Origin: Magnetospirillum sp.
Lineage (GTDB): Bacteria; Pseudomonadota; Alphaproteobacteria; CACIAM-22H2
NCBI GenBank assembly: GCA_027532905.1
Contig: JAPZUA010000001.1
Location: 147,565 to 211,564, forward strand
Direction: 5' to 3'
DNA length: 64,000 nt
The position numbers and the translations under genes were made by a program. Shown here piece after piece: positions 19,315 to 36,390 of this stretch (position 1 is its first letter; each line of letters starts with the position of its first letter). Below the pieces are notes generated by a model. That model was given only the letters and a program-made list of their open reading frames with translations. It searched no databases and was not told the origin of the DNA.

Positions 19315-19322
19315 GTTTGCCA

Positions 19323-20687
19323 CTATGCGCGGGCGACGAGGCGCGCTGCAAGCGCATCCGCACGTGCCGCCACCGGCTCGACCCAAGCGGCGGCGGCCGT
19401 CACAGCCGCAGCAGGGTCGAACGCAACGCCAAGCGCTTTCGCGTCGAGGCCCGTGTCGGCCCCGGCAAGCACCGAATGCAGATCGCGCCCGCTGTCGCGC
19501 ACCGTATCGGCGGCACGTTCGACCAGCGCATGCGCCGCAGCGCGGCCGAGCTTGGGGGCGAGCAGCGAAGCCGCAGCATCCGCAAACACAAGGCCGCGCG
19601 TGGCGCCGAGATTGCGCAGCATCGCCGCTGCATCGACATGCAGCCCTTCGGCCAGAAAACGTGCATGTGCGACCGCACCACCCGCACAGCCGAACAGCGA
19701 CGCGACTGCATGCCATTCGGCGTGCCACGCCCCAGCCGGGCGCTCGTGGGCCGCAACGAGACTGCCGCTCAAACCTGCCGCAAGCCCGCCTGCCGCTTGC
19801 GCGTTGGCGAGGATCGCCGTAGCCGCGATCGGATTGCGCTTGTGCGGCATGGCGGTGGAACCGCCGCGCCCTTCGACATGCGGCTCGCTCACCTCGCCGA
19901 TTTCGGTCGAAGACAGCGCCACGATATCGCCCGCCATCTTGGCAAGCGTGCCGGCAAGTGTCGCAAGCCATTGCCCGGCCGCGACGATGCCCGCACGGCG
20001 CGTGTGCCAAGCGATGGGCGGCGCACCAAGACCGAGCTCGCGCGCATAGTCGGCCAGCACGGCGGGGCCTTTCACGCCAAGCGAGGCGAGCGTGCCGACC
20101 GGTCCGCCCAGTTGCGCCAGGCACGCAGCGTCGCGCCTTGCCGCGAGCGCGCTTGCCGCATCGGCGATGCCGGCAAGCCACACGGCCGCCTTGAAGCCGA
20201 ACGAAACGGGTGCGGCGTGTTGGCCGTAGCTGCGCGCAATACACGGCGTGTGCGCGTGGCGCCGCGCGAGGCTTGCAAGGGCGCGCAGCATGTCGGCAAG
20301 GTCGGCCGCCAAGAGATCGAACGCGACGGCCATCTGCAGCGCCAGTGCGGTGTCGAGAATGTCCTGCGACGTCGCCCCTTTGTGCAGATCGGCGCCGAAT
20401 TCGGCCGGCAGCAGCTTCTGCAGCGCCTTCACGAACGCGATCGTCGGCACGCCGGCAAGCACCGTTCCGGCCGCCAGCGCCTGCTTGTCGAACGAAGCGG
20501 GCGAGACGGCCTCGATCGAGTCGGCAAGGCCTGCAGGTGCGAGGCCCGCGCGCGCCTGAACGCGTGCGAGTGCTGCCTCGCTGCGCAGCATTGCGGCGAT
20601 CAACGCCTCGTCGGCGAACACCGCCGCCAAGCCGGGAGGGGCGAACAAAGGGCCAAAGATTTCGGAATCGAGAGGCGAAAAACTCAT
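19323..20687 (-). CDS. pcaB: 3-carboxy-cis,cis-muconate cycloisomerase
   Basis: Class II lyase signature GSTAMPHKRNP. Start MSFSPLDSEIFG. Confidence 0.85.
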   Translation of the reverse strand: MSFSPLDSEIFGPLFAPPGLAAVFADEALIAAMLRSEAALARVQARAGLAPAGLADSIEAVSPASFDKQALAAGTVLAGVPTIAFVKALQKLLPAEFGADLHKGATSQDILDTALALQMAVAFDLLAADLADMLRALASLARRHAHTPCIARSYGQHAAPVSFGFKAAVWLAGIADAASALAARRDAACLAQLGGPVGTLASLGVKGPAVLADYARELGLGAPPIAWHTRRAGIVAAGQWLATLAGTLAKMAGDIVALSSTEIGEVSEPHVEGRGGSTAMPHKRNPIAATAILANAQAAGGLAAGLSGSLVAAHERPAGAWHAEWHAVASLFGCAGGAVAHARFLAEGLHVDAAAMLRNLGATRGLVFADAAASLLAPKLGRAAAHALVERAADTVRDSGRDLHSVLAGADTGLDAKALGVAFDPAAAVTAAAAWVEPVAARADALAARLVARA

Positions 20688-20788
20688 CGTATTTTCGATT
20701 CTAACCGGTTCTGGGCGCCGCGCAATCGTTGCCCGCAAAGCATCGGCGTGCGATGCTCGTTTCCAACGACAAAAGAGGGGGAACACGC

Positions 20789-21964
20789 ATGCGAATTCGC
20801 CAGCTGCGGGCATTCATGACGCGCGACAAAGACCGTCCGCGCGTGCTCGTCGCCATCGACACCGACGAGGGAATTACGGGCTGGGGCGAGTGCTACAATC
20901 ACGGGCCCGACCGCGCCCTGATCCCGCTGCTCGACTATCTGGCGATCTTTCTGGCGGGCCAGGATCCGCGCCGCATCGAATATCTGATCCTTTATCTGCT
21001 GCAGCAGAGCCGCTTCCCGCCCGGCGCTTTGGGCCTCGCCGCGATCTCGGCGATCGACCATTGCCTGTGGGACATTTCGGCAAAAGCGCTCGGCGTGCCT
21101 GTCTATCGGCTGCTCGGCGGCGAGGTACGCAACCGCGTCCAGGTTTATGCCGGCGTCTACACCGCCCCCGATCCGCTGATCGCGCGCGATACGTTCGACG
21201 CGCTTTCGGGCGAGTGGGGCATCACGGCTTTCAAACTCAGCCCCTATCGCGGCGACCTCCATCGCCGGCGCTGGGGTGACGTGGTCCGCGAGAGCGCCGC
21301 CTATTTCGCGGCCCTGCGCGAAACCGTGCGCGCCGACTACGAAATCGCGTTCGACGCGCACGCCAAACTCTTCGAGCCCGTGCAGGCCATGCAGCTCGGC
21401 AACGCGCTTGCCCCTTACGATCCGCTGTTCTTCGAAGAGCCGATCCGGCCCGAAAACTTCGAAGCCTGGGGAGCGCTCAAAGCGCGGCTCGACTGCCCGC
21501 TTGCGACCGGCGAATGCCTCTATAGCCGCTTCGAATTCCTGCGCTTGCTGCAGGTGCGCGGTGCAGACATCATCCAGCCCGACATTTGCGTGGTTGGCGG
21601 CCTGCTCGAAATGCGCAAGATCGCCGCAATCGCCGAAGCGCACTACGTGACCGTGGCGCCGCACAACCCGATGGGTCCACTTGCCACGGCCGTGAACGTG
21701 CATTTCAGCGCTGCCCAGCCCAACTTCAAGATCCTCGAATATCGCCTGCCGCACGGTGCCAATTACGACGACAAAAACCCCGACCAGCTCGGCGCACCCT
21801 ACGTGCGCGATCCGTATTTGCCCAAGGACGGGCATCTCGAATTGCGGCCCGACCGGCCGGGCTGGGGTGTCGAGATCGACGAAGAGGTGCTGAAGCGCGA
21901 CGGCTACATACACTGGCAGCGCAAAGTCCCGACCAAGCCCGACGGCAGCAGCGGCTACGTATAG
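20789..21964 (+). CDS. enolase-superfamily (MR/MLE) sugar-acid dehydratase, galactonate/mannonate-dehydratase-like
   Basis: MRIRQLRAFMTRD...TGWGEC...DCPLATGE core. RBS AGAGGGGGAA. Confidence 0.7.
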   Translation: MRIRQLRAFMTRDKDRPRVLVAIDTDEGITGWGECYNHGPDRALIPLLDYLAIFLAGQDPRRIEYLILYLLQQSRFPPGALGLAAISAIDHCLWDISAKALGVPVYRLLGGEVRNRVQVYAGVYTAPDPLIARDTFDALSGEWGITAFKLSPYRGDLHRRRWGDVVRESAAYFAALRETVRADYEIAFDAHAKLFEPVQAMQLGNALAPYDPLFFEEPIRPENFEAWGALKARLDCPLATGECLYSRFEFLRLLQVRGADIIQPDICVVGGLLEMRKIAAIAEAHYVTVAPHNPMGPLATAVNVHFSAAQPNFKILEYRLPHGANYDDKNPDQLGAPYVRDPYLPKDGHLELRPDRPGWGVEIDEEVLKRDGYIHWQRKVPTKPDGSSGYV

Positions 21965-21965
21965 G

Positions 21966-22688
21966 CTAGCGGCCCTTGGCTTTGCGCCATGCCTCGAAAT
22001 CGATTTTCGATTTTTCGTCGGTCGGCGGATAGAGGCCCGCGATCGAGCGACCCTCCTGCACTTTCTCGACGACGAAGTCCTCGAACGCCGTCATCTCGAC
22101 GGCTTCGGTCGCGACTTCATCGGCAATCTCCGCCGGGATCACAACCACGCCCTCGCGGTCGCCGACCAGGACGTCACCGGGCCAAACCGGCACGTCGCCG
22201 CAGCCGATCGGAACGTTGCTTTCGACCGCCTGGTGGAGCGTGAGATTGGCGGGTGCCGACGGGCGATGGTGGTAGGCCGGAAACGGCAGAGCCGCAATCT
22301 CGGGCGAATCGCGAAAGCCGCCGTCGGTCACGATGCCCGCTACGCCGCGCACCATAAGGCGCGTGACGAGGATGCCGCCGGCGGACGCAGCGCGCGCATC
22401 CTTGCGGCTGTCCATCACCAACACGGCCCCCTTCGGGCATTCTTCGATCGCAACGCGCTGCGGATGCTTGCGGTCGAGAAACACCGTGATCGGGTTTAGA
22501 TCTTCGCGCGCCGGGATGTAGCGCAGCGTATAGGCCTCGCCGACCATGTTCGGCAGGTTCCCGTTCAAGGGCCGCACGTCCTGGATGAACTGGTTGCGCA
22601 AGCCCCGCTTGAACAACGCCGTGCACAAGGTGGCGACGCTGACCTGCATCAGCTTTGCCCGCGTCGCATCCGATAGTTTCGGCGCCAT
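21966..22688 (-). CDS. RraA family protein (class II aldolase/4-hydroxy-2-oxo-acid aldolase-like)
   Basis: RraA/MenG-like fold residues (GGILVTRLMVRGVAGIVTDGGFRD). Confidence 0.65.
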   Translation of the reverse strand: MAPKLSDATRAKLMQVSVATLCTALFKRGLRNQFIQDVRPLNGNLPNMVGEAYTLRYIPAREDLNPITVFLDRKHPQRVAIEECPKGAVLVMDSRKDARAASAGGILVTRLMVRGVAGIVTDGGFRDSPEIAALPFPAYHHRPSAPANLTLHQAVESNVPIGCGDVPVWPGDVLVGDREGVVVIPAEIADEVATEAVEMTAFEDFVVEKVQEGRSIAGLYPPTDEKSKIDFEAWRKAKGR

Positions 22689-22691
22689 CGC

Positions 22692-23915
22692 TCAGCCCTT
22701 CGGGAAATAGACGCCGCGCTTGAGGCGCGTCTGCACATAGACCTGCTCGTCGTACGTACCCTCGGCATAGGCGCCGCTTTTGGCGGCACCCGGGATCGAG
22801 ACGTTGCATTCGCTCGGGTGCTGCTTGACGAAAGCCTCGTCGATGTCGACGCCGAGCCCGGGCCCGTCAGGCACTTTGAGGAAGCCGTTTTCCTGCAGGG
22901 GATGCGGCACTACGGTCTGCGCGCGCCCCACCCAATCGTCTTCGATGCGTTCGAGGATGAGGCCGTTCGGGATCGCCGCCAGCACATGCAGGGCAGCGTA
23001 TTCGGCGACGGGCCCGAGCGAGCCCGAATGCGGCGCCATCATGATGTGGTGCGCTTCGGCCTGGGCCGCGATCTTCTTCATCTGCGTAATGCCGCCCGCA
23101 CGGCCCGTGTCGGGCTGCACGATATCGACAAGATCTTTTTCGATGAGTTCGCGCAAGCCGTAGACCGTTGCCATGCGCTCGCCCGCTGCGAGCGTCACGT
23201 TTGCCGAATCGCGGATGCGCCGGAAGCCGTCGAGATTTTCGGGTGCGATCGGATCTTCGACGAACATCAGTCGATAGGGCTCGAGGGCGCGTGCCACTTG
23301 CGCTGCGTCGGCTGGCGTCAGCCACGGCGGCCCGTGCAGATCGATCATCAGATCCATCTCGTCGCCGATCGCGTCGCGCAGCATCGCCACTTTGCGCACG
23401 GGATCCGAGACGCCGCCGCACTTGATCGCCGTGATGCCGCGCTTCTTGAGCGACAGCGCGACCTCGGCCGTGTTGGCATGCGCGTAGATGCGAATGCGGT
23501 CGCGGATTTTGCCGCCGAGCAAATTCCAGACCGGCGTATTGAGCGCCTTGCCCTTGATGTCCCACAGCGCCATGTCGATGCCGGTCATCGCCCCGCCGCC
23601 GACCGTGCCGACCATGCCGTGGCCCATGATGGCGCACATCATCTTCTGCCACAGCCGCTCGATATGCATGGGGTCTTCGCCGATCAGGATCGATTTGAGA
23701 TCCTGCACGGCCGTCTGGATCACGCGCGGCCAGCCGCTGCATTCGCCGATGCCGACGATCCCTTCGTCGGTATGCACCTTCACGAACAGCCAGTTGCGCG
23801 TGCCCGTGAGCCCCTGGCGCGTCGCTTTTGTTCCGAACGAACCGTCGGACGCCCACCCGCGTAGATTGGGCGCATCGACCTGCATCAAAAACGTCTCAAT
23901 ATCGACGATACGCAA
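22692..23915 (-). CDS. enolase-superfamily (MR/MLE) dehydratase
   Basis: GIGECSGWPRV..., KIAAQAEAHHIMMAPH. Same operon as the RraA-like gene and the ABC transporter. Confidence 0.7.
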   Translation of the reverse strand: MRIVDIETFLMQVDAPNLRGWASDGSFGTKATRQGLTGTRNWLFVKVHTDEGIVGIGECSGWPRVIQTAVQDLKSILIGEDPMHIERLWQKMMCAIMGHGMVGTVGGGAMTGIDMALWDIKGKALNTPVWNLLGGKIRDRIRIYAHANTAEVALSLKKRGITAIKCGGVSDPVRKVAMLRDAIGDEMDLMIDLHGPPWLTPADAAQVARALEPYRLMFVEDPIAPENLDGFRRIRDSANVTLAAGERMATVYGLRELIEKDLVDIVQPDTGRAGGITQMKKIAAQAEAHHIMMAPHSGSLGPVAEYAALHVLAAIPNGLILERIEDDWVGRAQTVVPHPLQENGFLKVPDGPGLGVDIDEAFVKQHPSECNVSIPGAAKSGAYAEGTYDEQVYVQTRLKRGVYFPKG

Positions 23916-23936
23916 AAGAACTCTCCCCCGATAGCC

Positions 23937-25630
<1,694 letters not shown>

Positions 25631-25634
<4 letters not shown>

Positions 25635-26752
25635 TTGTTGTAGGGGTCGGCTGCATCGCGCAGGCCGTCGCCGAGGAAGTTGAGCGCCATCACCGCGACC
25701 ACGACGGCCGCACCGGGGGCAAACAGCCACGGGGCCGTGGCGATCGAGCGAATATTCTGCGCCTCGCGCAGCAGCACGCCCCACGAGATCGTCGGCGGCT
25801 GCAGCCCGAGCCCCAGGAAGGACAGCGAGGTTTCAGCCAAGATCATCGCCGGGATCGCGAGCGTAATGCTTGCGATGATGTGGCTCATGAAGCTCGGCAG
25901 CATGTGGCGGAAAATCACGCGCCCTTCCGAGGCACCGTCGAGCCGTGCGGCCACGACGAACTCCTCGGTGCGCAGGCTCAGGAAGCGGCCGCGCACCACG
26001 CGCGCCAACTGCGCCCAGCCGGTCAGCGAGAGAATGACCGTGATCATGAAATACTGCGTGGTGGCGGGCCAGTCCTGCGGCATGGCAGCGGCCAATGCGA
26101 GCCAGATCGGGATCGACGGCAGCGACAGAATGAATTCGATCACGCGCTGGATCCCGAAATCGAGCTTGCCGCCGAAATAGCCCGATATGCCGCCGAGCAC
26201 CACGCCGATCGTCAGCGAAAGGAACACGCCGACCAATCCCAGTGACAGCGATATCTGCGCACCCTGCATGATGCGGCTGTAGACGCAGCGCCCGAGACGG
26301 TCCGCACCGAGCAGGAACAGCGGTTGGCGCGCATCGCTCGAGGCGAACATGTGCCGGTCGGTCGGGAACAGGCCGAACAAATTGTATTCGTAGCCCCTGC
26401 CGAATATTTCGAGCGGAATCTTGCGGCTCGTATCTTCGACATACACGGCCGCCAGCGACACGGGATCGCGACGCAGCGCGTAGGGATGGAAATAGGGACG
26501 GAACGCGAAGCCGTCGTCGGTGTCGAAAAAATGGATGGTCTGCGGCGGGTGGAAGGCGGCCCGCGCATTCTGGCGGGCAGGATCGTTCACGGCGAAAAAG
26601 CCCGGGATCGCCGCAACGAGATAGAGGAAGGCCACCACCACGAGCCCCACCATCGCGAGATGATGGCGCTTGAAAGCCCACCACAGCAATTGCCATTGCG
26701 AGGCAACCGCCATCTGCTTGGCATCGACCGCCCCTTCTGCAAGCGCCGCCAT
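25631..26752 (-). CDS. ABC transporter permease (DppC/OppC-like)
   Basis: BPD transport-system inner-membrane component; 6 TM helices. Confidence 0.75.
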
Positions 26753-26755
26753 CGT

Positions 26756-27742
26756 CTACTCCAACCGGATACGCGGGTCGACGAGAGCGAGCAGAATGTC
26801 GCTGACGAGTGAGCCCAGCAAAGTCAAAGCGCAGATCAGCAGCACGAAGGCGCCGGCCAGATACATGTCCTGGCTCATTAGCGACTGCAGCAGCATGGGC
26901 CCCGCGGTCGGCAGGCTCAGCACGATCGCAACGATAACAGAGCCCGACACGAGATTGGGCAGAAGCCACGCGATCGTCGAGATGAACGGATTGAGGGCCA
27001 CGCGCAGCGGGTATTTGACGAGCAAGGCGAACTCCGAAAGCCCTTTGGCGCGCGCCGTAGTGACGTAGGGCTTGTTGAGTTCGTCGAGCATGTTGGCGCG
27101 CATCACGCGGATGAGGCTCGCCGTACCGGACACCGCGAGGATCACGACCGGCACCCACAGATGCGACAAGAGATCGAGCACCTTGCCGAAGCTCCAAGGT
27201 GCGGCGACGTAAGGCTCGGAGAACAGCCCGCCGACATCCTGGCCGAACTTAACGGCCGCCACATACATGAGCACGAGGGCGAGCAGGAAGCTCGGGATCG
27301 CAAGCCCCAGAAAACTGAAGAAGGTCGCGATATAGTCGCCGACCGAGTATTTTTTGACCGCTGAAAAAACGCCGATCGGGAGCGCCAGCCCCCAGGTCAG
27401 CAGCAACGTCGAGACCGTCAGCAGCAAGGTCAGCGACATGCGCTCCCAGATGAGTTCGGAAACCGGCTGCTGCCACTCGAAGCTCAGGCCGAAATTGCCT
27501 TCGGTCACGATGCCGAAGATCCATTTTCCGTACTGCACGATCATCGGCTGATCGAGGCCGAAGCGCGCGCGCAGATCGGCGGCCGTGTTCTGGTCCACGA
27601 TTTCGTTCGAAGCGGCGAGCGTCGCGATATAGGTCGTAACGTAGTCGCCCGGCGGCAGTTCGATCAGCACGAACGACAGGAAGCTCAACGCCACCAGCGA
27701 CGGGATCATCCACAACAGACGCGAAACGATGAAGCGCAGCAT
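26756..27742 (-). CDS. ABC transporter permease (DppB/OppB-like)
   Basis: MLRFIVSRLLWMIPSLVALSFLSF start typical of DppB/OppB. Confidence 0.75.
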   Translation of the reverse strand: MLRFIVSRLLWMIPSLVALSFLSFVLIELPPGDYVTTYIATLAASNEIVDQNTAADLRARFGLDQPMIVQYGKWIFGIVTEGNFGLSFEWQQPVSELIWERMSLTLLLTVSTLLLTWGLALPIGVFSAVKKYSVGDYIATFFSFLGLAIPSFLLALVLMYVAAVKFGQDVGGLFSEPYVAAPWSFGKVLDLLSHLWVPVVILAVSGTASLIRVMRANMLDELNKPYVTTARAKGLSEFALLVKYPLRVALNPFISTIAWLLPNLVSGSVIVAIVLSLPTAGPMLLQSLMSQDMYLAGAFVLLICALTLLGSLVSDILLALVDPRIRLE

Positions 27743-27828
27743 TCGTGTTCGGGTTTCCGCTTGGGGGAAGAAGGCGGCGGCCGGCCCCGCCCTTTTCGAA
27801 GGGCAGGACCGGCCGCGCGAACCGTTCG

Positions 27829-29784
27829 TTACGTCGTGAAGAAGAACTGCTGCGGCAGGGACGGGCCCGGGTTGGGCCAGCTCCAGGCCTGCGGCATCTT
27901 CAGCGGCACGTTGCGCAGGTTGTTCTTCGCGATGCCGAACGAGTTGACCGCAAGGCAGACGCCGATCGTCTCGAAAGCGTCGGCCGTGAGGTCGAGCATT
28001 TCCTTGACGATCTGGCCGCGCTTGGCGATGTCGGGCGTGGCGCGCGCATCGTCGAACAGCTTCATGCGGCGCTTTTGGCTTTCCGGCGGCTCCTGGCCTT
28101 CCTTGCCGCCCGACACGTACCATTGCGTCCACGGGATCGCGTAACGCGAGCCTTGCGGATGCTGGGCGAGATAGTCGCGCGGATCGAGGATCGGATCGAG
28201 ACCACCGGGGCCGGGCCACGTCGCCGCGTCGTGGTCGTTATTGTCGCCGCGCGTGTAGTAGAGGGCGCGCTCGATCGTGTTGACTTTGATGTCGACGCCC
28301 AGTGCCGCCCAGTGGCGCTTGACGAGTTCGAGCGTGTCGACCGCGTCCGGGTAGAGGGTCGGGATCACGTCGATCGCGAAGAACACTTTTTGCCCATCGG
28401 GGCGCAGGCGCATGCGGTCGGGCCCACGCCGGTAGCCGAGGCGGTCGAGGATCGCGTTGGCTTGGGCCGGATCGTGGCTCGTGAACTGGCGCGCGAGCTT
28501 TTCGTGGTACCAGGGATGGCCCGGGCGCGGCCCGGTCTGGTAGGGCTCCGACTGGCCGAGATAGACGAGATCGATGATCTCTTTGCGGTCGATGCCGAGC
28601 GACAGCGCCTGGCGGAACTCCTTGTTGGCGAACATGGCGCGCATCGCGGGATCTTTGTGCGTCATGTTCAGATAGATCATGCATTGCTGCGCGCCGGAGG
28701 CGACCAGCTCGACGAGGCGGTAGGCGCCGCGCTGCATGTTCTGCGACAGGGTCGGCTTGTTCTGCAGCGAGTCGATGTGGCGGTCCTGGATGTCGATACG
28801 GCCCGAGATCGTGTCGAGCATCAGCGATTCGACGTCCTGCGAGATGTTCATCGTCAGCTGGTCGATATAGGGCAGCTGTGCGCCGTTGGTGTCGACCTGC
28901 CAGAAATACGGATTGCGGCGCATCGTCACGCGCGTCGCACCGCCCGTGTAGGCTTCCGCGACGACCCAGGGATCGAGCGTGGGCTTCTCGGCGTTGCCCC
29001 AGCGCGACGGAATTTCAATGTCGCCACAGCGCGCGCGGAACAAAGTCGGCCAATCCGAAAGGTTGGCCGCGCGCACCTGGGCGTCGAGGCCAGTGTTATA
29101 TTTCGGATGGAACTGGCTGCAATAATGCTTCGGGAACAGCGTGGGATGCTGACCGAGCGGCGTGGCCAGATTCTCGAGGAACATCGCATAGGGTGCTTCG
29201 AACGCGAACTTCACGGCCGTGTCGCTGACCTTGGTTACGACGGCCGGCTTACCGCCGATCGTGAGCACCGAGGGGACCGAGCGGTAGAGTTCGGAATTCT
29301 TCGTGCAGTCCTCGATCGCGAACACGACGTCGTCGGCGGTGAAGGGTTTGCCGTCCGACCATTTCATGCCCTGGCGCAGATGGAACACGAACTCGGTCGC
29401 GGTGGCGTTCACGTCCCAGCGTTCGGCGACGTTCGGCAGCACTTGCGTGAATTCGAGGTTCCAGCGCACGAGGCCTTGGTTGCCGACCATGCGCAGAATT
29501 CCGTTGTGGTCGCTCGAGCCGCGCAGGCCCCGGCGCAGCGTGCCGCCGTAGCGGCCCACGGTTTCGTGCGGCGTGACTACCATCGGATTGCGCGGCAGGC
29601 GCTGGTCGAGCGGCGGCAGGCGGTTTTCGGCGACCATGCGCGCGAGTTCGGGCGCTTCTTTGGGTGCGGCTTGGGCCAACGCCAAAGGCGGGCTTGCGGC
29701 GAGGGCAGCCACCCCGGCCACACCCTGCAGCAGAACGCGCCGCGATACGGCGCTCTCGGTCTTCGAATCCTGACGGTCCGACAT
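27829..29784 (-). CDS. ABC transporter substrate-binding protein, family 5 (peptide/opine/nickel-type), Tat-exported
   Basis: SRRVLLQGVAGVAALAASPPLALA Tat signal. 651 aa, SBP_bac_5 size. Confidence 0.75.
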   Translation of the reverse strand: MSDRQDSKTESAVSRRVLLQGVAGVAALAASPPLALAQAAPKEAPELARMVAENRLPPLDQRLPRNPMVVTPHETVGRYGGTLRRGLRGSSDHNGILRMVGNQGLVRWNLEFTQVLPNVAERWDVNATATEFVFHLRQGMKWSDGKPFTADDVVFAIEDCTKNSELYRSVPSVLTIGGKPAVVTKVSDTAVKFAFEAPYAMFLENLATPLGQHPTLFPKHYCSQFHPKYNTGLDAQVRAANLSDWPTLFRARCGDIEIPSRWGNAEKPTLDPWVVAEAYTGGATRVTMRRNPYFWQVDTNGAQLPYIDQLTMNISQDVESLMLDTISGRIDIQDRHIDSLQNKPTLSQNMQRGAYRLVELVASGAQQCMIYLNMTHKDPAMRAMFANKEFRQALSLGIDRKEIIDLVYLGQSEPYQTGPRPGHPWYHEKLARQFTSHDPAQANAILDRLGYRRGPDRMRLRPDGQKVFFAIDVIPTLYPDAVDTLELVKRHWAALGVDIKVNTIERALYYTRGDNNDHDAATWPGPGGLDPILDPRDYLAQHPQGSRYAIPWTQWYVSGGKEGQEPPESQKRRMKLFDDARATPDIAKRGQIVKEMLDLTADAFETIGVCLAVNSFGIAKNNLRNVPLKMPQAWSWPNPGPSLPQQFFFTT

Positions 29785-29837
29785 CGGTTCCCTCCCGTTA
29801 TGATGCGCCTTGGGGCGCGTTTGTTGGTTTCATTAGG

Positions 29838-29858
29838 GCACTAATATATCAGAGTGTC
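29838..29858. promoter_or_regulatory. GntR operator-like half-palindrome upstream of the ABC transporter operon
   Basis: GCACTAATATATcagaGTG shares 12 nt with the perfect palindrome at 30677-30696. Confidence 0.5.
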
Positions 29859-30642
29859 AACCTTGCTCCTCTTCGGCCGCATTGGGTGCGGTGGCAGCGG
29901 GTGCGGCGCGCACATATTCGGGAAAGCGCGCGCAGAGATTTTCGATGTTCGCCAGCGTGCCGGACAGATGCTTGCGCAGAAAAGCTTGCGCCACTTCCGG
30001 CTGGCGGTCGGCGATGGCTTCGACGATCGCCTGATGGTCATCGAGAACGATCTGGATCTTGCCGCGGGCGGGCAAATGCAGGCGCCGCAGCCGGTCGATC
30101 TGGCCGCTGTGGCGGCGGGCGAGATGCCACAGATCCTGCACGCGCGCCGCCTCGTACATCAGGCGGTGGAAATGCTGGTCCTCGGCCGAGAAGGCGCCAA
30201 TATCGCTGTCCTTGGCGATCAGGCGCTGGCGCGCAAGCGAGGCGCGCAAGGAAGCGATCAGCTCAGCCGAAGGCGCCATCGCAAGCTCGCGCACGATTTC
30301 GAGCTCGATCGAACGGCGCAGAAAATGCGCCGCGCGCGCGGCCGTAAGGTCGATGAGACTCACGACCGTGGCATGCTGCGGAAAAACTTCGACGAGCCCT
30401 TCGGCCGCCAGCCGCATCAGCGCATCGCGCACCGGCGTTTGGCTCACGCCCAATTGGCGCGCAAGTGCGGCACGCGACAAGACCGTGCCCGGTGCCAGTT
30501 GCAGCGACACGATTGCCTCGCGCAGCCGCTCGAAGGCGTGGGGTGCAGCCCGGCCGCGGCGCACGGGCACCGGCTTGGGTGCCGCAGCCGCCAATCGGCG
30601 GACGGGTTTGCGCGAGCGCAGCGGGGCAGCAGGCGTTGCCAT
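29857..30642 (-). CDS. GntR family transcriptional regulator (FadR/FCD subfamily)
   Basis: N-terminal wHTH (LARQLGVSQTPVRDALMRLAAEGLV) plus a C-terminal FCD domain. Confidence 0.8.
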   Translation of the reverse strand: MATPAAPLRSRKPVRRLAAAAPKPVPVRRGRAAPHAFERLREAIVSLQLAPGTVLSRAALARQLGVSQTPVRDALMRLAAEGLVEVFPQHATVVSLIDLTAARAAHFLRRSIELEIVRELAMAPSAELIASLRASLARQRLIAKDSDIGAFSAEDQHFHRLMYEAARVQDLWHLARRHSGQIDRLRRLHLPARGKIQIVLDDHQAIVEAIADRQPEVAQAFLRKHLSGTLANIENLCARFPEYVRAAPAATAPNAAEEEQG

Positions 30643-30676
30643 GAAACGCAGTGTATCAGAACGCGCGCTAGCGTCG

Positions 30677-30696
30677 AGCACTAATATATTAGTGCT
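30677..30696. promoter_or_regulatory. perfect 18-20 bp palindrome aGCACTAATATATTAGTGCt in the gntR-udh divergent promoter
   Basis: Exact reverse-complement symmetry verified base by base. Centred in an 80-bp divergent intergenic region. Confidence 0.7.
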
Positions 30697-30722
30697 TTGA
30701 AGCGAACCGCTTCCCCGCTAAA

Positions 30723-31559
30723 GTGGCCTTTATAAACGAACGGGAGGGACCCTTGAACATTCTTCTGACCGGTGCCGCCGGGCATATCGGCGGCAAACTG
30801 CGCCGCCTGTTCGCCGGGCGATTCTCGAAACTGCGCGTGAGCGATATCGCCCCCATCGCGGATCTCGCCCCCGGAGAAGAGAATTTCACCTGCGATCTTG
30901 CCGACCGCGACGCGGTCGAACGTGCCATGGTCGGAATCGACGGTGTCATCCATCTCGGCGCCTTGTCGGTCGAGTACGATTTCGACCGCATTCTGCAGGC
31001 CAACATCGTCGGCACCTACAATGTCTACGAGGCCGCACGCAAAGCCGGCACCAAGCGCATCGTGTTCGGCAGTTCGAACCATGCGGTGGGCTTCCATCCG
31101 CGCACGACCACGATCGACCACCGCGTCGATATCCGCCCCGATACGCGCTACGGCCTCAGCAAATGCTGGGGCGAAGCGGTGTCGGCCCTTTATGCCGACA
31201 AATACGGCGTCGAGACGCTCAACATCCGCATAGGCAATGCGGCCGACGTGCCGCAGACCTTGCGCGCCCTCGCCCTTTGGACGAGTGCACGCGATCTCGC
31301 CCAGCTCATCGCGATCGGCCTTGAGCATCCGGATATTCGCTGCGAGATCGTGTACGGCATCTCGCGCAACAGCCGCGCCTGGTACGACAATTCGAACGCC
31401 TATCGCCTCGGCTACAAGCCGCAGGACAGTGCCGACGACCATGTCGCGGCCGCCGAAGCCGGCGAAAGGAGTGCCGTGCAGGACGAGATCTCGCTGCACT
31501 TCCAGGGCGGGCCGTTCTGCTCGGCCGAATACGCAAAACCGCTGCGCGCGGCCCGTTAG
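30723..31559 (+). CDS. udh: uronate dehydrogenase (NAD-dependent epimerase/dehydratase fold)
   Basis: Strong similarity to Agrobacterium/Pseudomonas Udh (GAAGHIGG, YGLSKCWGE, LHFQGG near the C-terminus). Confidence 0.8.
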   Translation: MAFINEREGPLNILLTGAAGHIGGKLRRLFAGRFSKLRVSDIAPIADLAPGEENFTCDLADRDAVERAMVGIDGVIHLGALSVEYDFDRILQANIVGTYNVYEAARKAGTKRIVFGSSNHAVGFHPRTTTIDHRVDIRPDTRYGLSKCWGEAVSALYADKYGVETLNIRIGNAADVPQTLRALALWTSARDLAQLIAIGLEHPDIRCEIVYGISRNSRAWYDNSNAYRLGYKPQDSADDHVAAAEAGERSAVQDEISLHFQGGPFCSAEYAKPLRAAR

Positions 31560-31563
31560 CGCC

Positions 31564-32835
31564 ATGAATCGCTCCAATCCGCGCATCGCCGCCGTCCGCA
31601 CCACGCCGATCGCCTTTCGCGATCCCCCGCTCCTCAACGTGGCCGGCGTGCACGAGGCTTTTGCCTTGCGCAGCATCATCGAGGTCGAAACCGAAGACGG
31701 CCGCATCGGCCTCGGCGAGAGCTACGGCGATCTCGAAACGCTCGCCAACCTCGCCAAGATCGGCCCAATGCTCGTGGGCCTCGATCCCTACGACCTCAAC
31801 GGGCTTGCGAGCCGCAGCTACCAAGCGGTGACGGGCCAGGAATTCGCGGGCCAGACCTATCCGGCCGCCGGCGACAAAGCGCTGGCGAGTGCGACCGCCG
31901 CCTTCGAAGTGGCGTTCCTCGATCTGCAGGGCCAGATCGCGGGCTTGCCGCTCTATGCGATCCTCGGCGGCAAGGTGCGCAGCCACGTGCCCTTCAGCGC
32001 CTATCTCTTCTACAAATTCAAGCAGCACAAGGACAATCCCGGCTACCCCGCCGACGATTGGGGCGAGGCGATCGACCATGCCCAGATCGTGGCGCAGGCC
32101 AAGCGCATGGTGCTTGAATGCGGCTTCGGTTCGATCAAGCTCAAAGCCGGCGTGTTCGAACCCGATTTCGAAATCGAATCCCTGCGTGCATTGCGCAAGG
32201 CCTTCCCCGACCATCCGCTGCGCATCGATCCCAATGGCGGCTGGTCGGTCGCGACGACCAAGCGCGTGATGCCGCAGCTCGACGGTTTGCTCGAATATCT
32301 CGAGGACCCGACCGGTACGCTCGAAGAAATGGGCGAGGTCGCGACCTTCGCCAAAATGCCGCTTGCGACGAACATGGTCACGATCGCCTTCGGCCATATC
32401 CCGAAATCGGTGCGACTCAATTCCGTGCAGATCGTGCTGAGCGACCACCATTACTGGGGCGGCCTGCGCGCGACCCAGAATCTGGCGCAGATCGGCCGCG
32501 TGTTCGGGCTTGGCATCTCGATGCATTCGAACTCGCATCTCGGAATCAGCTTGGCGGCGATGACGCATGTGGGAGCGACGATCCCGAACCTCGCCTATGC
32601 CTGCGACACGCACTATCCCTGGCAGGTCGAAGAGGTGATCGACGGCGGCAAGCTGAAGTTCGAGGGCGGCAGCCTGGCGCCGCCGCAGGGCCACGGCCTC
32701 GGCGTGCGCCTCGACCGCACCGCCCTTGCCACGCTGCATCGCCAGTACCAGACCTGCGGCATTCGCAAGCGCGACGACGCCAAAGAGATGCGCAAATACC
32801 GGCCGGACTGGAGCTCGGCGCGGCCGCGCTTCTAG
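31564..32835 (+). CDS. gudD: glucarate dehydratase (enolase superfamily)
   Basis: GudD-like features (KLKAGVFEPDFEIESLRAL, DPNGGW, 423 aa). Confidence 0.75.
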   Translation: MNRSNPRIAAVRTTPIAFRDPPLLNVAGVHEAFALRSIIEVETEDGRIGLGESYGDLETLANLAKIGPMLVGLDPYDLNGLASRSYQAVTGQEFAGQTYPAAGDKALASATAAFEVAFLDLQGQIAGLPLYAILGGKVRSHVPFSAYLFYKFKQHKDNPGYPADDWGEAIDHAQIVAQAKRMVLECGFGSIKLKAGVFEPDFEIESLRALRKAFPDHPLRIDPNGGWSVATTKRVMPQLDGLLEYLEDPTGTLEEMGEVATFAKMPLATNMVTIAFGHIPKSVRLNSVQIVLSDHHYWGGLRATQNLAQIGRVFGLGISMHSNSHLGISLAAMTHVGATIPNLAYACDTHYPWQVEEVIDGGKLKFEGGSLAPPQGHGLGVRLDRTALATLHRQYQTCGIRKRDDAKEMRKYRPDWSSARPRF

Positions 32836-32837
32836 GC

Positions 32838-33404
32838 TTAGACCGCGAAGAAGACCGTTTCGCCTTCGCCTTGCAGGCGGATATCGAACCGCCACTGGCC
32901 GGACGCTTCTTGCGTTGCGATCAATGTCGAGCGCCGCTCGGCCGGCACTAACGCGAGCACCGGGTCGGTTGCGTTGGCGGCTTCGCCTGCAAAATAGACG
33001 CGTGTATAAAGCCGGTTCAGCAATCCGCGCCCGAGGACGGAAACGGCGATGTGCGGGGCGCTTGCACCTGCCGCACCCGGCCTTACGGTCTGCAACCGGA
33101 AGACGCCGCCCGCATCCGTGGCCACGCGTGCGAACCCTCGGAACGGCGCATTGGCGGGCAGCCCCGCATCCGCCCCCGCATAGCGCCCGGCCGCATCGGC
33201 CTGCCAGAATTCGAGCATTGCATCGCCGACGGGCGCGCCATCGCCGTCCAACACCGCGCCGACGATTTCGATCGCGGCTCCTGCCCCTGCTATCGCCGCA
33301 TCGACGGCGGCTTGGTAGGGATAGCCCGCCGGCGTCAGGCAATAATGGAAAAACGGTCCCACCGTCTGCGACGGCGTGATGCCCAACGTTTTGCGCTCAA
33401 CCAT
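32838..33404 (-). CDS. pcaG: protocatechuate 3,4-dioxygenase alpha subunit
   Basis: ITPSQTVGPFF... and RFDIRLQGEGETVFFAV C-terminus, as in Pseudomonas putida PcaG. Confidence 0.9.
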   Translation of the reverse strand: MVERKTLGITPSQTVGPFFHYCLTPAGYPYQAAVDAAIAGAGAAIEIVGAVLDGDGAPVGDAMLEFWQADAAGRYAGADAGLPANAPFRGFARVATDAGGVFRLQTVRPGAAGASAPHIAVSVLGRGLLNRLYTRVYFAGEAANATDPVLALVPAERRSTLIATQEASGQWRFDIRLQGEGETVFFAV

Positions 33405-34110
33405 GCGAACCACTTTCCATCGGCGTGGCCGCACGGCCGCGCAGCACGATGTCCCACACATAGCCGAGCGCCCATTCGGGCATCGTCGTGTCGATGTCGA
33501 AGCGCGCCACCATGCGGGCGCGCGCGGCGGCATCGGGCACCGAACCCATGATCGGATCGAGTGCGTGCAGCGGATCGCCGGGGAAATACATCTGCGTCAC
33601 CAGCCGCTGCAGAAACGAGCGCCCGAACAGCGAAAAATGGATGTGCGCGGGCCGCCAAGCATTGGCGTGGTTGCGCCACGGATAGGCCCCCGGGCGGATC
33701 GTGGTGAAGCGATAGCGCCCTTGCGCATCGGTCGCCACGCGCCCCGCCCCGTAGAAATGCGGATCGAGCGGGGCCGGATGCTGGTCGACCGCATGGATGT
33801 AGCGGCCCGCCGCATTGGCCTGCCAGATCTCGACGAGCGTGTCGGGCACAGGCCTGCCGTCTTCGTCGAGCACGCGGCCCGACACGACGATGCGCTCGCC
33901 TTGCGCCTCTTTGCCGTCGTCGGTCTTCGTAAGATCGTCGTCGCCGGGGCGGCTCGCATCGTGCCCGAGCATGGGCCCCGACAATTCGGAAGCCCCCGCC
34001 TGGATCGCGATCGGCGGCAGCAAGGGTGCGCGCTTCTGCGTGCTGCGATAGCCCGGCGACAGCGACGGCGCATGCGCTGCCAAACTCGCCACGGGATAGA
34101 TGTCGGTCAT
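33397..34110 (-). CDS. pcaH: protocatechuate 3,4-dioxygenase beta subunit
   Basis: TLVEIWQANAAGRYIH...TIRPGAYPWRNHANAWRPAHIHFSLFG. Confidence 0.9.
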   Translation of the reverse strand: MTDIYPVASLAAHAPSLSPGYRSTQKRAPLLPPIAIQAGASELSGPMLGHDASRPGDDDLTKTDDGKEAQGERIVVSGRVLDEDGRPVPDTLVEIWQANAAGRYIHAVDQHPAPLDPHFYGAGRVATDAQGRYRFTTIRPGAYPWRNHANAWRPAHIHFSLFGRSFLQRLVTQMYFPGDPLHALDPIMGSVPDAAARARMVARFDIDTTMPEWALGYVWDIVLRGRAATPMESGSHG

Positions 34111-34156
34111 GTCGTCTCCCCCCACTCTGTCCCAGCACTTGGCGTGCCGCTTCAGA

Positions 34157-34209
34157 TACGCGACAACAGGCTACAATCGGCGACAGGCGTTGACTATAGG
34201 CGACATCGG
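34157..34209. promoter_or_regulatory. three direct repeats (G)GCGACA spaced 20 bp apart upstream of pcaHG
   Basis: acGCGACAacagg / tcGGCGACAggcg / taGGCGACAtcgg at 34157, 34177 and 34197, i.e. a two-helical-turn periodicity. Confidence 0.45.
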
Positions 34210-34415
34210 TAACCTATTTCCAACGCGCTGAAAACAAACACGAAGCACGCGATTTTGGGCCAATTGGGAGACGGATTCGGATTTTTCGAAATGTCGCCAA
34301 TAGCCTTATTTCACCATGTCAAACAGCACAACGCCGCTGCCCCTCTTTTGCCGAAAGAGGAGCAGCGGCGCATTGTTCGAGAATACGCAGAACACAACCT
34401 AAATATCAATGATTT

Positions 34416-34832: not shown

Positions 34833-34968
34833 TTTTTACCCTCTTGTTCGCCGATGATGCCGTTGTCGATCGACGGAATCTAGACGGCTCAGGTGCGGAC
34901 GTCCAACCCGCGACGTTGGCGGTCAACTCTCCGATTGTATGGCCGAAAAAAAAGCACGGATACTCGCA

Positions 34969-34997
34969 TTGACTTTCGATGATATTCGTATTATGTT
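34969..34997 (+). promoter_or_regulatory. candidate sigma70 promoter TTGACT-N17-TATGTT
   Basis: Found in an AT-rich stretch 40 nt upstream of the 35036 ATG. Confidence 0.35.
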
Positions 34998-35035
34998 CTT
35001 ATAAGACTATATAACCCTTTAGAGGTATTTAGCCT

Positions 35036-35512: not shown

Positions 35513-35533
35513 CGGAAGGAGGAGGCAAACACC

Positions 35534-36295: not shown

Positions 36296-36390
36296 CGACG
36301 CCAGGGCGCGATCCAAGCGGCGGTTGGCGGCGATGCTGTCTTTGCTCTAACCTAGCTTCCGTCGCGAACAAGAAGACGGAAGAACGCCTA

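Follow-up and report, generated by a model that had tools for sequence, protein, structure and literature searches.

A putative GntR-controlled hexuronate catabolic cluster combining an SPH1118-type ABC importer with a FlDet-type RraA-like enzyme in Magnetospirillum sp.

The cluster described here lies in a 64-kb window (the whole stretch of 64,000 nucleotides that was analyzed) at positions 20789-32835 and, exactly as the initial annotation had delimited it, extends from the ATG of the first enolase-superfamily gene to the stop codon of the last. Its genes are arranged as two divergent operons and one convergent gene, not as a single unit. Domain assignments based on Pfam and NCBIfam profiles recovered the genes listed previously (three enolases, an RraA-like protein, a family-5 binding protein, DppB, DppC, a fused ATPase and a Udh-like protein) and added a GntR/FCD regulator that had been missed. 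The following features were found:

20789..21964, plus strand: Enol1, galactonate-dehydratase-like, MR subgroup (MR_MLE_N and MR_MLE_C), convergent with the transporter operon
21966..22688, minus strand: FlDet-type RraA-like enzyme (PF03737; NCBIfam PRK08245, 348.7 bits)
22692..23915, minus strand: Enol2, the second galactonate-dehydratase-like enzyme (MR_MLE_N and MR_MLE_C), in the transporter operon
23937..25634, minus strand: fused DppD-DppF ATPase of 565 aa (two ABC_tran and two oligo_HPY stretches)
25631..26752, minus strand: DppC/OppC-type permease (OppC_N and BPD_transp_1)
26756..27742, minus strand: DppB/OppB-type permease (BPD_transp_1_N and BPD_transp_1)
27743..27828, minus strand: GC-rich stem-loop in the gap separating the binding-protein gene from that of the first permease (RNA folding)
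27829..29784, minus strand: periplasmic family-5 solute-binding protein of the SPH1118 type (SBP_bac_5)
29838..29855, no strand assigned: operator-like site 2, GCACTAATATATCAGAGT, with 3 mismatches to the palindrome at 30678
29857..30642, minus strand: GntR-family regulator of the FadR/FCD type (GntR and FCD domains)
30678..30695, no strand assigned: operator-like site 1, the perfect 18-bp palindrome GCACTAATATATTAGTGC (palindrome search of the window)
30753..31559, plus strand: Udh-family NAD-dependent extended SDR (44% identity to PDB 3AY3, 42% to 3RFT)
31564..32835, plus strand: enolase-superfamily enzyme of the glucarate-dehydratase (GlucD) subgroup, uncharacterised family (MR_MLE_N and MR_MLE_C; PDB matches)

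The genes of the transporter operon overlap or are spaced by 3-86 nt: the start codon (ATG) of the fused ATPase and the stop codon of DppC share the tetranucleotide ATGA (25631-25634), and the start codon of the RraA-like gene follows the Enol2 stop by 3 nt. The DppB start, an ATG at 27742, was read straight from the sequence. Directly upstream of it, the stem-loop at 27743..27828 (-48.6 kcal/mol, z = -4.0) was matched in folding by 0 of 200 shuffles and has no T-run after the stem; it may serve to keep the binding-protein mRNA in excess. The composition of the operon was followed in 53 loci with an orthologous transporter and full 10-kb flanks. The DppC orthologue adjoins the binding-protein gene in 52 of these (identity 69-84%; 57% in locus L082), and orthologues of the fused ATPase are 561-576 aa long. 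An orthologue of Enol1 or Enol2 occurs within 10 kb in 49/53 loci (Enol1 in 48, Enol2 in 34), a Udh-like or GlucD-like protein in 34, a FlDet-like or KdgD-like DHDPS-family protein in 40, and an SGL-type lactonase in 34. That the family-5 importer belongs functionally with the enolase-superfamily enzymes, as had been proposed for this locus, is thus supported. The alternative view of the Dpp-type system, as a common peptide importer that just happens to neighbour sugar-acid genes, is extremely improbable. Although models of peptide, nickel and glutathione transporters give good scores with its permease and ATPase components and public annotations name the binding protein 'peptide/nickel', the latter fails every peptide equivalog in NCBIfam (78 bits for DppA vs a cut-off of 1005). 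Moreover, in alpha- and betaproteobacteria alike the operon continues from the ATPase gene into enolase genes (49/53 loci), and the palindrome is common to the transporter and udh operons.

The binding protein carries a twin-arginine signal (SRRVLL) and matches PDB 7VER (607 bits, 46% identity), which is SPH1118, the pectin/galacturonate-binding protein of Sphingomonas A1, whose ligands are galacturonate (GalUA), unsaturated triGalUA, polygalacturonate and pectin. The ligands already established for this closest solved relative leave the suggestion of a new transport specificity unsupported. The GalUA1-subsite residues of SPH1118, the carboxylate-binding arginines among them, are kept in the window protein and nearly without exception across 84 orthologues: R47, N53, E216, R294, R466 and R496 never vary, position 57 holds Arg in 82 sequences and Lys in the other 2, and W594 is found in 83, with a gap in the remaining one. 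In contrast to the retained monomer subsite, all residues of SPH1118 subsites 2 and 3 (R438, D483, V484, N324, E505, F592) are replaced. The orthologue group has invariant pocket residues of its own (H295, W483 and G505 in 84/84; Y438 and P484 in 77/84), so that the true ligand may differ; this was counted against a uronate substrate. Family-5 binding proteins usually bind oligomers, and for SPH1118 itself the GalUA monomer, bound only at millimolar levels, is a less preferred ligand than polygalacturonate or unsaturated trigalacturonate; the millimolar binding is a further point counted against monomeric uronate. Import of oligogalacturonides, the pectin fragments suggested as cargo for SPH1118, is nevertheless doubtful here, given the replaced oligomer subsites, the bulky invariant Trp at position 483 and the lack of any conserved glycoside hydrolase or polysaccharide lyase across 80 loci. 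Likewise, the cluster lacks a conserved hydrolase, lyase or amidase, so that the 'aldarate-conjugate' pathway envisaged initially finds no counterpart in its gene content.

The regulator gene is flanked by udh and the gene for the binding protein. Its preferred start is the ATG at 30642, since the alternative GTG at 30681 falls inside the palindrome. The 18-bp palindrome has just two matches in the 64 kb (0 expected from shuffles), one upstream of each operon. Site 1 lies within the 110 bp that separate the divergent gntR and udh genes and is conserved with 0-2 mismatches in loci L006, L007 and L008, while site 2 begins right after the gntR stop codon, leaves 53 nt to the start codon (ATG) of the downstream binding-protein gene and is equally placed in these three loci and in L090. 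The transporter and udh operons are therefore likely under shared regulation, and the GntR protein is probably the repressor of both. A shared operator had been set beforehand as the point on which the link between the two operons would stand or fall, and the paired and conserved palindromes upstream of each speak for it.

The Udh-like protein shares 44% and 42% identity (222-230 bits) with 3AY3 and 3RFT, both of them uronate dehydrogenases (Udh); characterised Udh enzymes are as low as 41% identical to the Agrobacterium enzyme. Ser75, Ser110-Ser111-Asn112-His113, Tyr136, Lys140, Gly164, Arg174 and Phe258 (3RFT chain numbering) are kept, the sole change among the compared residues being Ser165 to Asn. 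Its longest open reading frame begins at 30723, and translation likely starts at the TTG at 30753, preceded by a Shine-Dalgarno-like GGGAGGG. The GlucD-subgroup gene begins 4 nt past the udh stop; the two are translationally adjacent in the window, in Bosea and in L092, where a PF10282 lactonase gene follows. The best-matching structures of the GlucD-subgroup protein (PDB 4IT1, 3VDG, 3VA8 and 3VC5; 433-499 bits) bear only putative or generic names from their depositors. It is 31% identical to E. coli GudD and shares with GudD and GudX the invariant residues N27, H32, Y150, F152, K205, K207, D235, N237, E260, N289, D313, H339, N341, D366, H368 and R422, whereas the loop around T103 differs. With 229.5 bits on TIGR03247 (cut-off 828.7), it is, judged by these comparisons, an uncharacterised GlucD-subgroup member with catalytic and metal residues and not a GudD equivalog; the earlier name gudD can be retained only as subgroup membership. 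The uronate/aldarate theme of the initial annotation is upheld by the Udh motifs and GlucD catalytic residues.

Mapping of active-site residues, which had been proposed as a means of assigning subgroups, placed one of the three enolases in the GlucD subgroup and showed that Enol1 and Enol2 keep the residues of galactonate dehydratase (DgoD). Enol1 retains D183, H185, E209, E235, D258, H285 and E310 and is 73% identical to PDB 4JN7/4JN8, deposited merely as 'enolase'; Enol2 retains the full catalytic set, shares 39% identity with E. coli DgoD and 35% with Enol1, and has 3SJN, of unknown function, as its top PDB match. On PRK14017 (cut-off 311) they score 263.7 and 277 bits, respectively, and all three enolase-superfamily proteins thus lie under the NCBIfam equivalog cut-offs, which, together with the lack of a demonstrated substrate in all three families, was counted against the uronate reading.

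The RraA-like protein aligns gaplessly over its full length with FlDet of Flavobacterium sp. UMI-01 (BLASTP, 162/234 identical, 69%, E 3e-115; FlDet sequence taken from Supplementary Fig. 8 of PMC8563752). FlDet, described in 2021, is a 2-keto-3-deoxyglucarate dehydratase/decarboxylase that was purified and converts KDGR to alpha-ketoglutarate semialdehyde (alpha-KGSA); it is inactive on DEHU, KDG (a monoacid), KDPG and 4-hydroxy-2-oxoglutarate, and catalyses the same reaction as KdgD without being homologous to it (PMC8563752). Initially the protein had been taken for an aldolase standing in for KdgD in a non-canonical aldarate pathway. In such a model it would be a class II pyruvate aldolase cleaving 2-keto-3-deoxy-hexarate to pyruvate and tartronate semialdehyde. 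Its membership in the Pfam family 'Aldolase/RraA', weak matches to HMG/CHA aldolase models and the absence of an alpha-KGSA dehydrogenase from the window would suit such a route, but the similarity to FlDet, with its different product and its inactivity on 4-hydroxy-2-oxoglutarate, scores far under the aldolase equivalog cut-offs (TIGR02798 72.5 vs 304.5; NF006731 90.1 vs 179) and the absence of tartronate-semialdehyde reductase and glycerate kinase from the window make it very doubtful. The protein is probably not an aldolase and is predicted to dehydrate and decarboxylate 2-keto-3-deoxy-hexarate to alpha-ketoglutarate semialdehyde, which would be the usual KdgD chemistry carried out by a non-homologous enzyme. 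Across the whole 64 kb no KdgD/DHDPS protein, alpha-KGSA dehydrogenase, sugar lactonase, garR, garK or mutarotase was found, the sole nearby aldehyde dehydrogenase being an L-piperidine-6-carboxylate dehydrogenase; the missing alpha-KGSA dehydrogenase, lactonase and mutarotase were counted against a uronate pathway. A FlDet-like protein without a DHDPS protein occurs in the window, L006 and L032, consistent with displacement. At 120.7 bits (cut-off 374), the DHDPS protein of the relatives fails as a KdgD equivalog, which was again counted against uronate.

A Weimberg-type route for a neutral sugar or aldonate, for example L-arabinose, D-galactose or D-fucose, has to be weighed as well. Here the Udh-like protein would act as aldose 1-dehydrogenase, Enol1 and Enol2 as L-arabinonate/D-galactonate-type dehydratases, and the FlDet-like enzyme would dehydrate 2-keto-3-deoxy-pentonate to alpha-ketoglutarate semialdehyde. 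The kinship of Enol1 and Enol2 with galactonate dehydratase fits such a route, as do the aldose-1-epimerase, DHDPS protein and SGL lactonase of the relatives and, in one case, a Gfo/Idh/MocA dehydrogenase encoded in the L090 operon. The nearest matches of the lactonase are Caulobacter xylonolactonase and regucalcin. In Variovorax, a FlDet-like protein 80% identical to that of the window adjoins an L-arabinonate-dehydratase equivalog, beside a GntR protein 58% identical to ours and the same palindrome; by this neighbourhood, the family may also use 2-keto-3-deoxy-pentonates, which lie outside the substrate panel of FlDet. The relatives' epimerase, lactonase and dehydrogenase, like the Variovorax neighbourhood, were entered against the uronate reading. 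However, the uronate-carboxylate arginines of SPH1118 and the Arg174 and SSNH motif of uronate dehydrogenases are kept, the known family of the co-transcribed GlucD-subgroup enzyme acts on a diacid sugar, and FlDet does not accept the monoacid KDG, which together render the neutral-sugar route unlikely.

What is directly shown, from the gene complement and its homologies to conserved residues, synteny and the paired palindromes, rather favours a GntR-controlled cluster for catabolism of a hexuronic acid by an oxidative route with several non-orthologous parts, for which we infer D-galacturonate and/or D-glucuronate, or a close relative, as the most likely substrate. The Tat-exported binding protein would capture the acid sugar and deliver it to the DppB/DppC-type permeases, powered by the fused double ATPase. 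The Udh-family dehydrogenase would oxidize C1 to an aldaro-lactone that opens to the aldarate, and dehydration of aldarates or their lactones to 2-keto-3-deoxy-hexarate would be divided among the GlucD-subgroup enzyme co-transcribed with udh and the two galactonate-dehydratase-like enzymes. The FlDet-type enzyme, replacing KdgD, would yield alpha-ketoglutarate semialdehyde, and as the last step we infer its oxidation to 2-oxoglutarate by a semialdehyde dehydrogenase encoded outside the window. GntR would act on the 18-bp palindromes before both operons and be released by a pathway intermediate. The cluster is thus a new combination of known parts and not a new pathway, and even its oddest parts have characterised relatives.

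The gene cluster at 20789-32835 is probably, though by no means certainly, a variant of the oxidative hexuronate pathway with non-orthologous parts. In Agrobacterium tumefaciens and Pseudomonas this pathway employs uronate dehydrogenase (Udh), Gli/Gci or the UxuL/UxuF lactonases together with GudD/GarD, KdgD, and a dehydrogenase for alpha-ketoglutarate semialdehyde (alpha-KGSA) (PMC6353982). The cluster resembles it in its Udh-family start, its enolase-superfamily step to 2-keto-3-deoxy-hexarate and its predicted end product alpha-KGSA, but differs in having an RraA-like enzyme of the FlDet type in place of KdgD, three uncharacterised enolase-superfamily families instead of a true GudD, GarD, Gci or Gli, uptake by a family-5 ABC system rather than a TRAP or MFS transporter, its own GntR regulator with an operator-like site, and no semialdehyde dehydrogenase or lactonase in the locus. 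With a G+C content of about 65%, the window is rich in long spurious open reading frames; third-position G+C served to select genes, which were then compared with profile libraries. The coordinates and gene list of the initial annotation proved right, except that it had omitted the GntR regulator and had given the name gudD to a gene whose product scores 229.5 bits against the GudD equivalog TIGR03247 (cut-off 828.7, the curated NCBIfam score for calling the same function).

Features of the sugar-acid cluster and its flanks (window coordinates; minus-strand genes in order of transcription)
29857-30642, minus strand: GntR/FCD regulator, first
27829-29784, minus strand: family-5 solute-binding protein, second
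26756-27742, minus strand: DppB-type permease, third
25631-26752, minus strand: DppC-type permease, fourth
23937-25634, minus strand: single protein with two ABC domains, fifth
22692-23915, minus strand: Enol2, enolase-superfamily gene, sixth
21966-22688, minus strand: RraA-like gene, last
30753-31559, plus strand: Udh-like SDR, divergent from the GntR regulator
31564-32835, plus strand: GlucD-like enolase-superfamily gene, 4 nt after the Udh-like gene
20789-21964, plus strand: Enol1, enolase-superfamily gene, its stop and that of the RraA-like gene 1 nt apart
19323-20687: pcaB, flank of the cluster
32838-34125: pcaG and pcaH, other flank
18160-19330: pcaD/pcaC-like
16985-18430: pobA-like

The junctions on the minus strand are tight, as the DppC stop and the ATPase start overlap (ATGA), 3 nt separate the Enol2 stop from the start of the RraA-like gene, and the widest intergenic gap in the operon measures 86 nt. 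At both convergent edges of the cluster (21964/21966, Enol1 against the RraA-like gene; 32835/32838, the GlucD-like gene against pcaG) only 1-2 nt lie between the stops, which leaves no space for a terminator. A generic promoter scan of 20300-33200 returned no promoter-like site and gave no aid in placing operon boundaries, and the 13 terminator-like sites in the same stretch did not exceed the level given by shuffling (mean 10.6). The intergenic stretch that separates the binding-protein gene from the first permease gene (27743-27828) holds a very stable GC-rich hairpin (-48.6 kcal/mol, z = -4.0) with no T-run after it. The 12-kb cluster as a whole sits between pcaG and pcaB, within a protocatechuate (beta-ketoadipate) gene set. 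The same arrangement occurs in L006, a locus of a Rhodospirillaceae MAG whose binding protein is 98% identical to that of the window and which evidently represents a close relative of the source organism. In L073, from another Rhodospirillaceae MAG, the pcaG-like and pcaB-like reading frames are adjacent, overlapping in stop-to-stop calls, whereas the window and L006 hold the cluster between them, which suggests that the sugar-acid cluster is an insertion into a pca operon. Beyond pcaG, the local G+C content dips to 0.58 at 34001-36300 (about 0.65 elsewhere) over a DUF3830 gene adjoining pcaH, also found in L006, a DUF6973 protein and reading frames without a family match. Farther on, at 39106-46569 and 48399-49241, aldo/keto reductases, one of which also carries a C-terminal Ribonuc_L-PSP domain, are mixed in among Liv-like ABC components of the branched-chain-amino-acid type, namely two Peripla_BP_6 binding proteins, a fused double BPD_transp_2 permease, and ATPases.

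The initial annotation had contrasted the RraA-like protein, as an aldolase, with KdgD. This assignment could not be upheld, as the protein missed the equivalogs for HMG/CHA aldolase (LigK/ProA) by a wide distance (TIGR02798, 72.5 against a cut-off of 304.5; NF006731, 90.1 against 179) and was instead 69% identical, over 234 residues without gaps (E 3e-115), to FlDet of Flavobacterium sp. UMI-01, the query sequence of which was taken from Supplementary Fig. 8 of PMC8563752. FlDet, a purified RraA-family protein with 237 residues, turns 2-keto-3-deoxy-glucarate into alpha-KGSA, an activity known for FlDet itself alone, and is inactive on DEHU, the monoacid KDG, KDPG and 4-hydroxy-2-oxoglutarate (Nishiyama et al. 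2021, PMC8563752). At 240 residues, the window protein shares with it the long form of the RraA fold, a size unusual in this family. The most economical reading of this similarity is that the RraA-like protein would perform the KdgD reaction, from 2-keto-3-deoxy-glucarate to alpha-KGSA and CO2, in which case the pathway would be chemically the usual one and not an aldolase branch. The genetic settings differ, since FlDet serves alginate (DEHU) oxidation in Bacteroidota with the alpha-KGSA dehydrogenase FlDeg adjoining, whereas the window gene belongs to a proteobacterial Udh/enolase/ABC cluster without such a neighbour, and glucarate or galactarate may give rise to another stereoisomer than the 2-keto-3-deoxy-glucarate formed from DEHU, on which FlDet acts. 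Because the protein reached only 41.6 bits against the equivalog of the RNase E regulator RraA (NF006875, cut-off 136), the public name 'ribonuclease activity regulator RraA' is unsupported. Among the matches listed from a search in which 8000 proteins passed E <= 1e-20, the orthologues at least 80% identical to it (P0121-P0240) were either unnamed or carried exactly this name, which on FlDet-like orthologues is probably a widespread mis-annotation. Another old mis-annotation of RraA-like proteins is 'methyltransferase'. In a proteomics table for Rhizobium leguminosarum pRlvA, the neighbouring genes RLV_95-98 appear as 5-dehydro-4-deoxyglucarate dehydratase, aldehyde dehydrogenase, 'putative methyltransferase' and 'putative mandelate racemase' (PMC7950203); judged from these names, they may form another aldarate-type cluster that pairs RraA-like and enolase-superfamily proteins.

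The substrate range of the FlDet-like family may be wider than hexarates. Proteins 80-82% identical to the RraA-like protein are encoded directly 3' of an IlvD/Edd-family dehydratase in Variovorax and one other genome, and since the Variovorax dehydratase passes the L-arabinonate-dehydratase equivalog, the family may also act on 2-keto-3-deoxy-pentonates, which are absent from the substrate panel of FlDet. Such compounds would fit the main rival explanation, a neutral-sugar or aldonate route using the same enzyme types, which we consider unlikely; on the other side stand the Udh-like dehydrogenase and the uronate-type subsite of the binding protein.

The preferred reading, a variant hexuronate pathway, begins with the Udh-like protein, an SDR of 268 residues (from TTG at 30753) within the size range of about 265-275 residues typical of Udh. 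It has the Rossmann motif LLTGAAGHIG (consensus TGAAGxxG) and the catalytic YxxxK in the form of the aligned Tyr136 and Lys140. In addition, the substrate-recognition residues (UdhAt Ser74, Ser110-Asn111-His112, Gly163 and Phe257, and Arg174 in chain numbering, which we take to be one of them) are conserved, the sole differing position among those checked being chain residue Ser165, replaced by Asn. Its identity to solved Udh enzymes is 42-44%, and the range of characterised Udh reaches down to 41%. The protein is thus predicted from its hallmarks to carry out NAD-dependent oxidation of D-galacturonate or D-glucuronate (EC 1.1.1.203), for which the beta5/beta6 substrate motifs have been described (PMC4476818).

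Active-site mapping of the three enolase-superfamily proteins, the check proposed in the initial annotation, recovered residues of the glucarate-dehydratase (GlucD) subgroup and of the DgoD type, although no substrate has been proven for any of the three families. In an alignment with E. coli GudD and GudX, the GlucD-like protein shows the invariant features of the GlucD subgroup, with the KxK motif (K205, K207), the metal ligands D235, E260 and N289 and the dyad D313-H339, and also retains N27, H32, Y150, F152, N237, N341, D366, H368 and R422. It can nevertheless be ruled out as a true GudD, given its score below the cut-off, its identity of only 31% to the E. coli enzyme and a different capping loop around T103 (GLQTFDLR in GudD, GQTYPAAG here), a loop that in E. 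coli GudD presumably contacts the substrate. Enol1 and Enol2, which are 35% identical to each other, both keep the DgoD constellation of the galactonate-dehydratase-like group (MR subgroup), D183, H185, E209, E235, D258, H285 and E310 (alignment with E. coli DgoD) but remain below the DgoD equivalog PRK14017 (263.7 and 277 bits, respectively; cut-off 311), and PDB 4GGB, which we take to be Gci, matches them with only 148-158 bits. Close relatives among solved structures are orphans from the same families under generic or putative names. Enol1 is 73% identical to 4JN7, which with 4JN8 was deposited simply as "enolase" (4JN7 being presumably labelled 'putative galactarate dehydratase'), and a literature search on 4JN7 found no paper; the GlucD-like protein matches the 4IT1 group (4IT1, 3VDG, 3VA8, 3VC5) with 433-499 bits. 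From these residue patterns, the three proteins are predicted to be acid-sugar dehydratases or lactone cycloisomerases.

Within the 64-kb window we found no alpha-KGSA dehydrogenase, either next to the FlDet-type gene (as fldeg is to fldet) or elsewhere, and no lactonase, mutarotase, tartronate-semialdehyde reductase or glycerate kinase, so the last pathway step would have to be encoded elsewhere. The aldehyde dehydrogenase at 37469-39109 was rejected for this role, as it passes the L-piperidine-6-carboxylate dehydrogenase equivalog (802 bits, cut-off 730) and aligns to an FlDeg fragment with 29% identity over 167 residues only. It follows a 4-hydroxybutyrate-dehydrogenase-like Fe-ADH (592 bits, cut-off 500), and the pair (36046-39109) looks like lysine/pipecolate-type catabolism unrelated to the sugar-acid cluster. 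The E. coli gud/gar system (GudD or GarD, the aldolase GarL, GarR, GarK) likewise dehydrates aldarates by an enolase-superfamily enzyme, but the window lacks an HpcH/DapA-type aldolase, garR and garK, and its predicted product is alpha-KGSA instead of pyruvate and tartronate semialdehyde. The GudL/GarABC variant of Enterocloster, whose enzyme is a DapA-like aldolase rather than an RraA-like protein, provides a precedent both for an aldarate ABC importer and for non-homologous replacement of the enzyme that processes 2-keto-3-deoxy-hexarate (PMC11775122).

The binding protein of the family-5 transporter, which carries an N-terminal twin-arginine motif (SRRVLL), failed every peptide, nickel and opine equivalog (DppA, 78.3 against a cut-off of 1005; OppA, 37.1 against 947). 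The solved protein closest to it is SPH1118 of Sphingomonas sp. A1 (PDB 7VEQ-7VEW; 607 bits, 46% identity), a protein that binds pectin, polygalacturonate and unsaturated trigalacturonate, and galacturonate weakly (PMC7055323, PMC9314435). When the residue roles from the crystal-structure paper (PMC9314435) were mapped onto the window protein and 84 orthologues, all six residues around the reducing-end galacturonate (Asn53, Arg57, Glu216, Arg466, Arg496, Trp594) were found in the window protein. R47, N53, E216, R294, R466 and R496 are invariant in 84/84 orthologues, 82 have Arg and 2 have Lys at position 57, and 83 keep W594, the remaining one having a gap there. All six subsite 2/3 residues of SPH1118 (Asn324, Arg438, Asp483, Val484, Glu505, Phe592) are replaced in the window protein, and several of the replacements are themselves invariant or almost so within the group (H295, W483 and G505 in 84/84; Y438 and P484 in 77/84). 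Together, the essentially invariant galacturonate subsite and the group's own residues at subsites 2/3 speak for a single conserved acidic ligand that contains a pyranose bearing a carboxylate; it is probably monomeric, or else an oligomer other than that of SPH1118. The two systems share the family-5 fold class, a neighbouring Opp/Dpp-type permease and ATPase set and the galacturonate monomer subsite. SPH1118, however, has been studied for pectin chemotaxis and assimilation, and the two papers cited for it describe no catabolic genes beside it (PMC7055323, PMC9314435), whereas the window orthologue group shares an operon with sugar-acid enzymes. The public names seen among its matches are "peptide/nickel" or the generic "ABC transporter substrate-binding protein", under which a sugar-acid importer is probably mis-annotated.

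The 110-bp region separating gntR from udh contains a perfect 18-bp palindrome, GCACTAATATATTAGTGC (30678-30695), and a second copy, which has 3 mismatches, stands shortly upstream of the binding-protein gene, at 29838-29855. No other match occurs in the 64 kb, where none would be expected by chance; both copies recur at the same positions in L006 and two further relatives' loci (L007, L008), and one of them in L090. We infer that the GntR protein binds them. The initial annotation had counted a transporter operon regulated independently, with no shared operator, as evidence against its reading; with palindromes upstream of both operons, the outcome favours coupling. In Variovorax sp. HW608 (L088), a further copy of the palindrome, GTACTAATATATTAGTGT, sits between a GntR protein 58% identical to that of the window and the IlvD-FlDet-like operon. 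The cluster there (5445-12702) is a different one, comprising the L-arabinonate-dehydratase equivalog, the FlDet-like protein, three TctC-type binding proteins and a 2-hydroxyacid dehydrogenase, and the FlDet family and its regulator thus travel together across dehydratase and transporter types.

A one-genome-per-species scan yielded 561 related stretches, of which the best 80 were fetched, and gene associations were counted by BLAST of the window proteins against all reading frames in the 53 loci with full 10-kb flanks. Several of the carrier genera are plant-associated; the best 80 of the 561 are mostly alpha- and betaproteobacteria and include Rhizobium, Agrobacterium, Neorhizobium, Bosea, Alsobacter, Tagaea, Roseomonas, Inquilinus, Rhodoferax and other Comamonadaceae. 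Within 10 kb of the transporter, Enol1 or Enol2 occurs in 49 of the 53 loci, a FlDet-like or DHDPS-family protein in 40, a Udh-like or GlucD-like protein in 34, an SGL-type lactonase in 34 and an aldose-epimerase-family protein in 20. Where a locus has the enolase genes, they mostly come after the ATPase gene and share its strand. Nine loci encode FlDet-like proteins, seven with a DHDPS protein and two without, as in the window, which also has no homologue of the relatives' DHDPS/KdgD, SGL lactonase or aldose epimerase. All-against-all clustering of the remaining reading frames in the 80 loci gave no conserved partners beyond a second GntR subtype, a Rhizobium-specific Dpp system nearby and antisense artefacts. 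The divergent operon of one relative (L092) consists of GntR, Udh-like, GlucD-like and a PF10282 lactonase, in the order expected for conversion of a uronate via its lactone and the aldarate to 2-keto-3-deoxy-hexarate; the lactonase, presumably of the UxuF family, has a 6-phosphogluconolactonase-like NCBIfam match below cut-off. The DHDPS protein of the relatives is KdgD-like but below the KdgD cut-off and hence no proof of a glucarate route, and the SGL lactonase is closest in the PDB to 7PLB, an Smp-30/Cgr1 family protein that we take to be the Caulobacter xylonolactonase, and to regucalcin, which is uninformative on substrate. With such a DHDPS score and a generic lactonase, the relatives give no proof of the substrate.

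The conserved module, consisting of the family-5 ABC importer, two galactonate-dehydratase-like enolases, the Udh-like dehydrogenase and a FlDet-like or DHDPS-like enzyme, might also represent a route, so far undescribed, that handles some acid sugar distinct from plain galacturonate or glucuronate, a reading to which we give limited credence. Its ligand could then be mannuronate, guluronate, iduronate, 4-O-methyl-glucuronate, an unsaturated 4-deoxy-uronate or an acidic disaccharide. Such a route, if real, would provide the first physiological functions for three orphan enolase-superfamily families, two of them with deposited structures (4JN7 and the 4IT1 group). For the favoured variant of the hexuronate pathway, each unusual part has a published relative, namely SPH1118 (2020, 2022), FlDet (2021) and the Udh structures, and no description of the assembled cluster was found in the literature searched (4JN7; mandelate racemase and galacturonate in rhizobia; oligopeptide ABC and uronate dehydrogenase), a search outside of which Bouvier et al. 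2019 lies. As the known chemistry of uronate oxidation is unchanged, the gain lies in annotation and pathway variants rather than in a new principle. The conserved context makes aldarates or their lactones concrete candidate substrates for three function-less enolase-superfamily families, solved orphan structures included, and it would widen the role of FlDet from a KdgD replacement in a marine alginate degrader to one found across Proteobacteria under the name of an RNase regulator.
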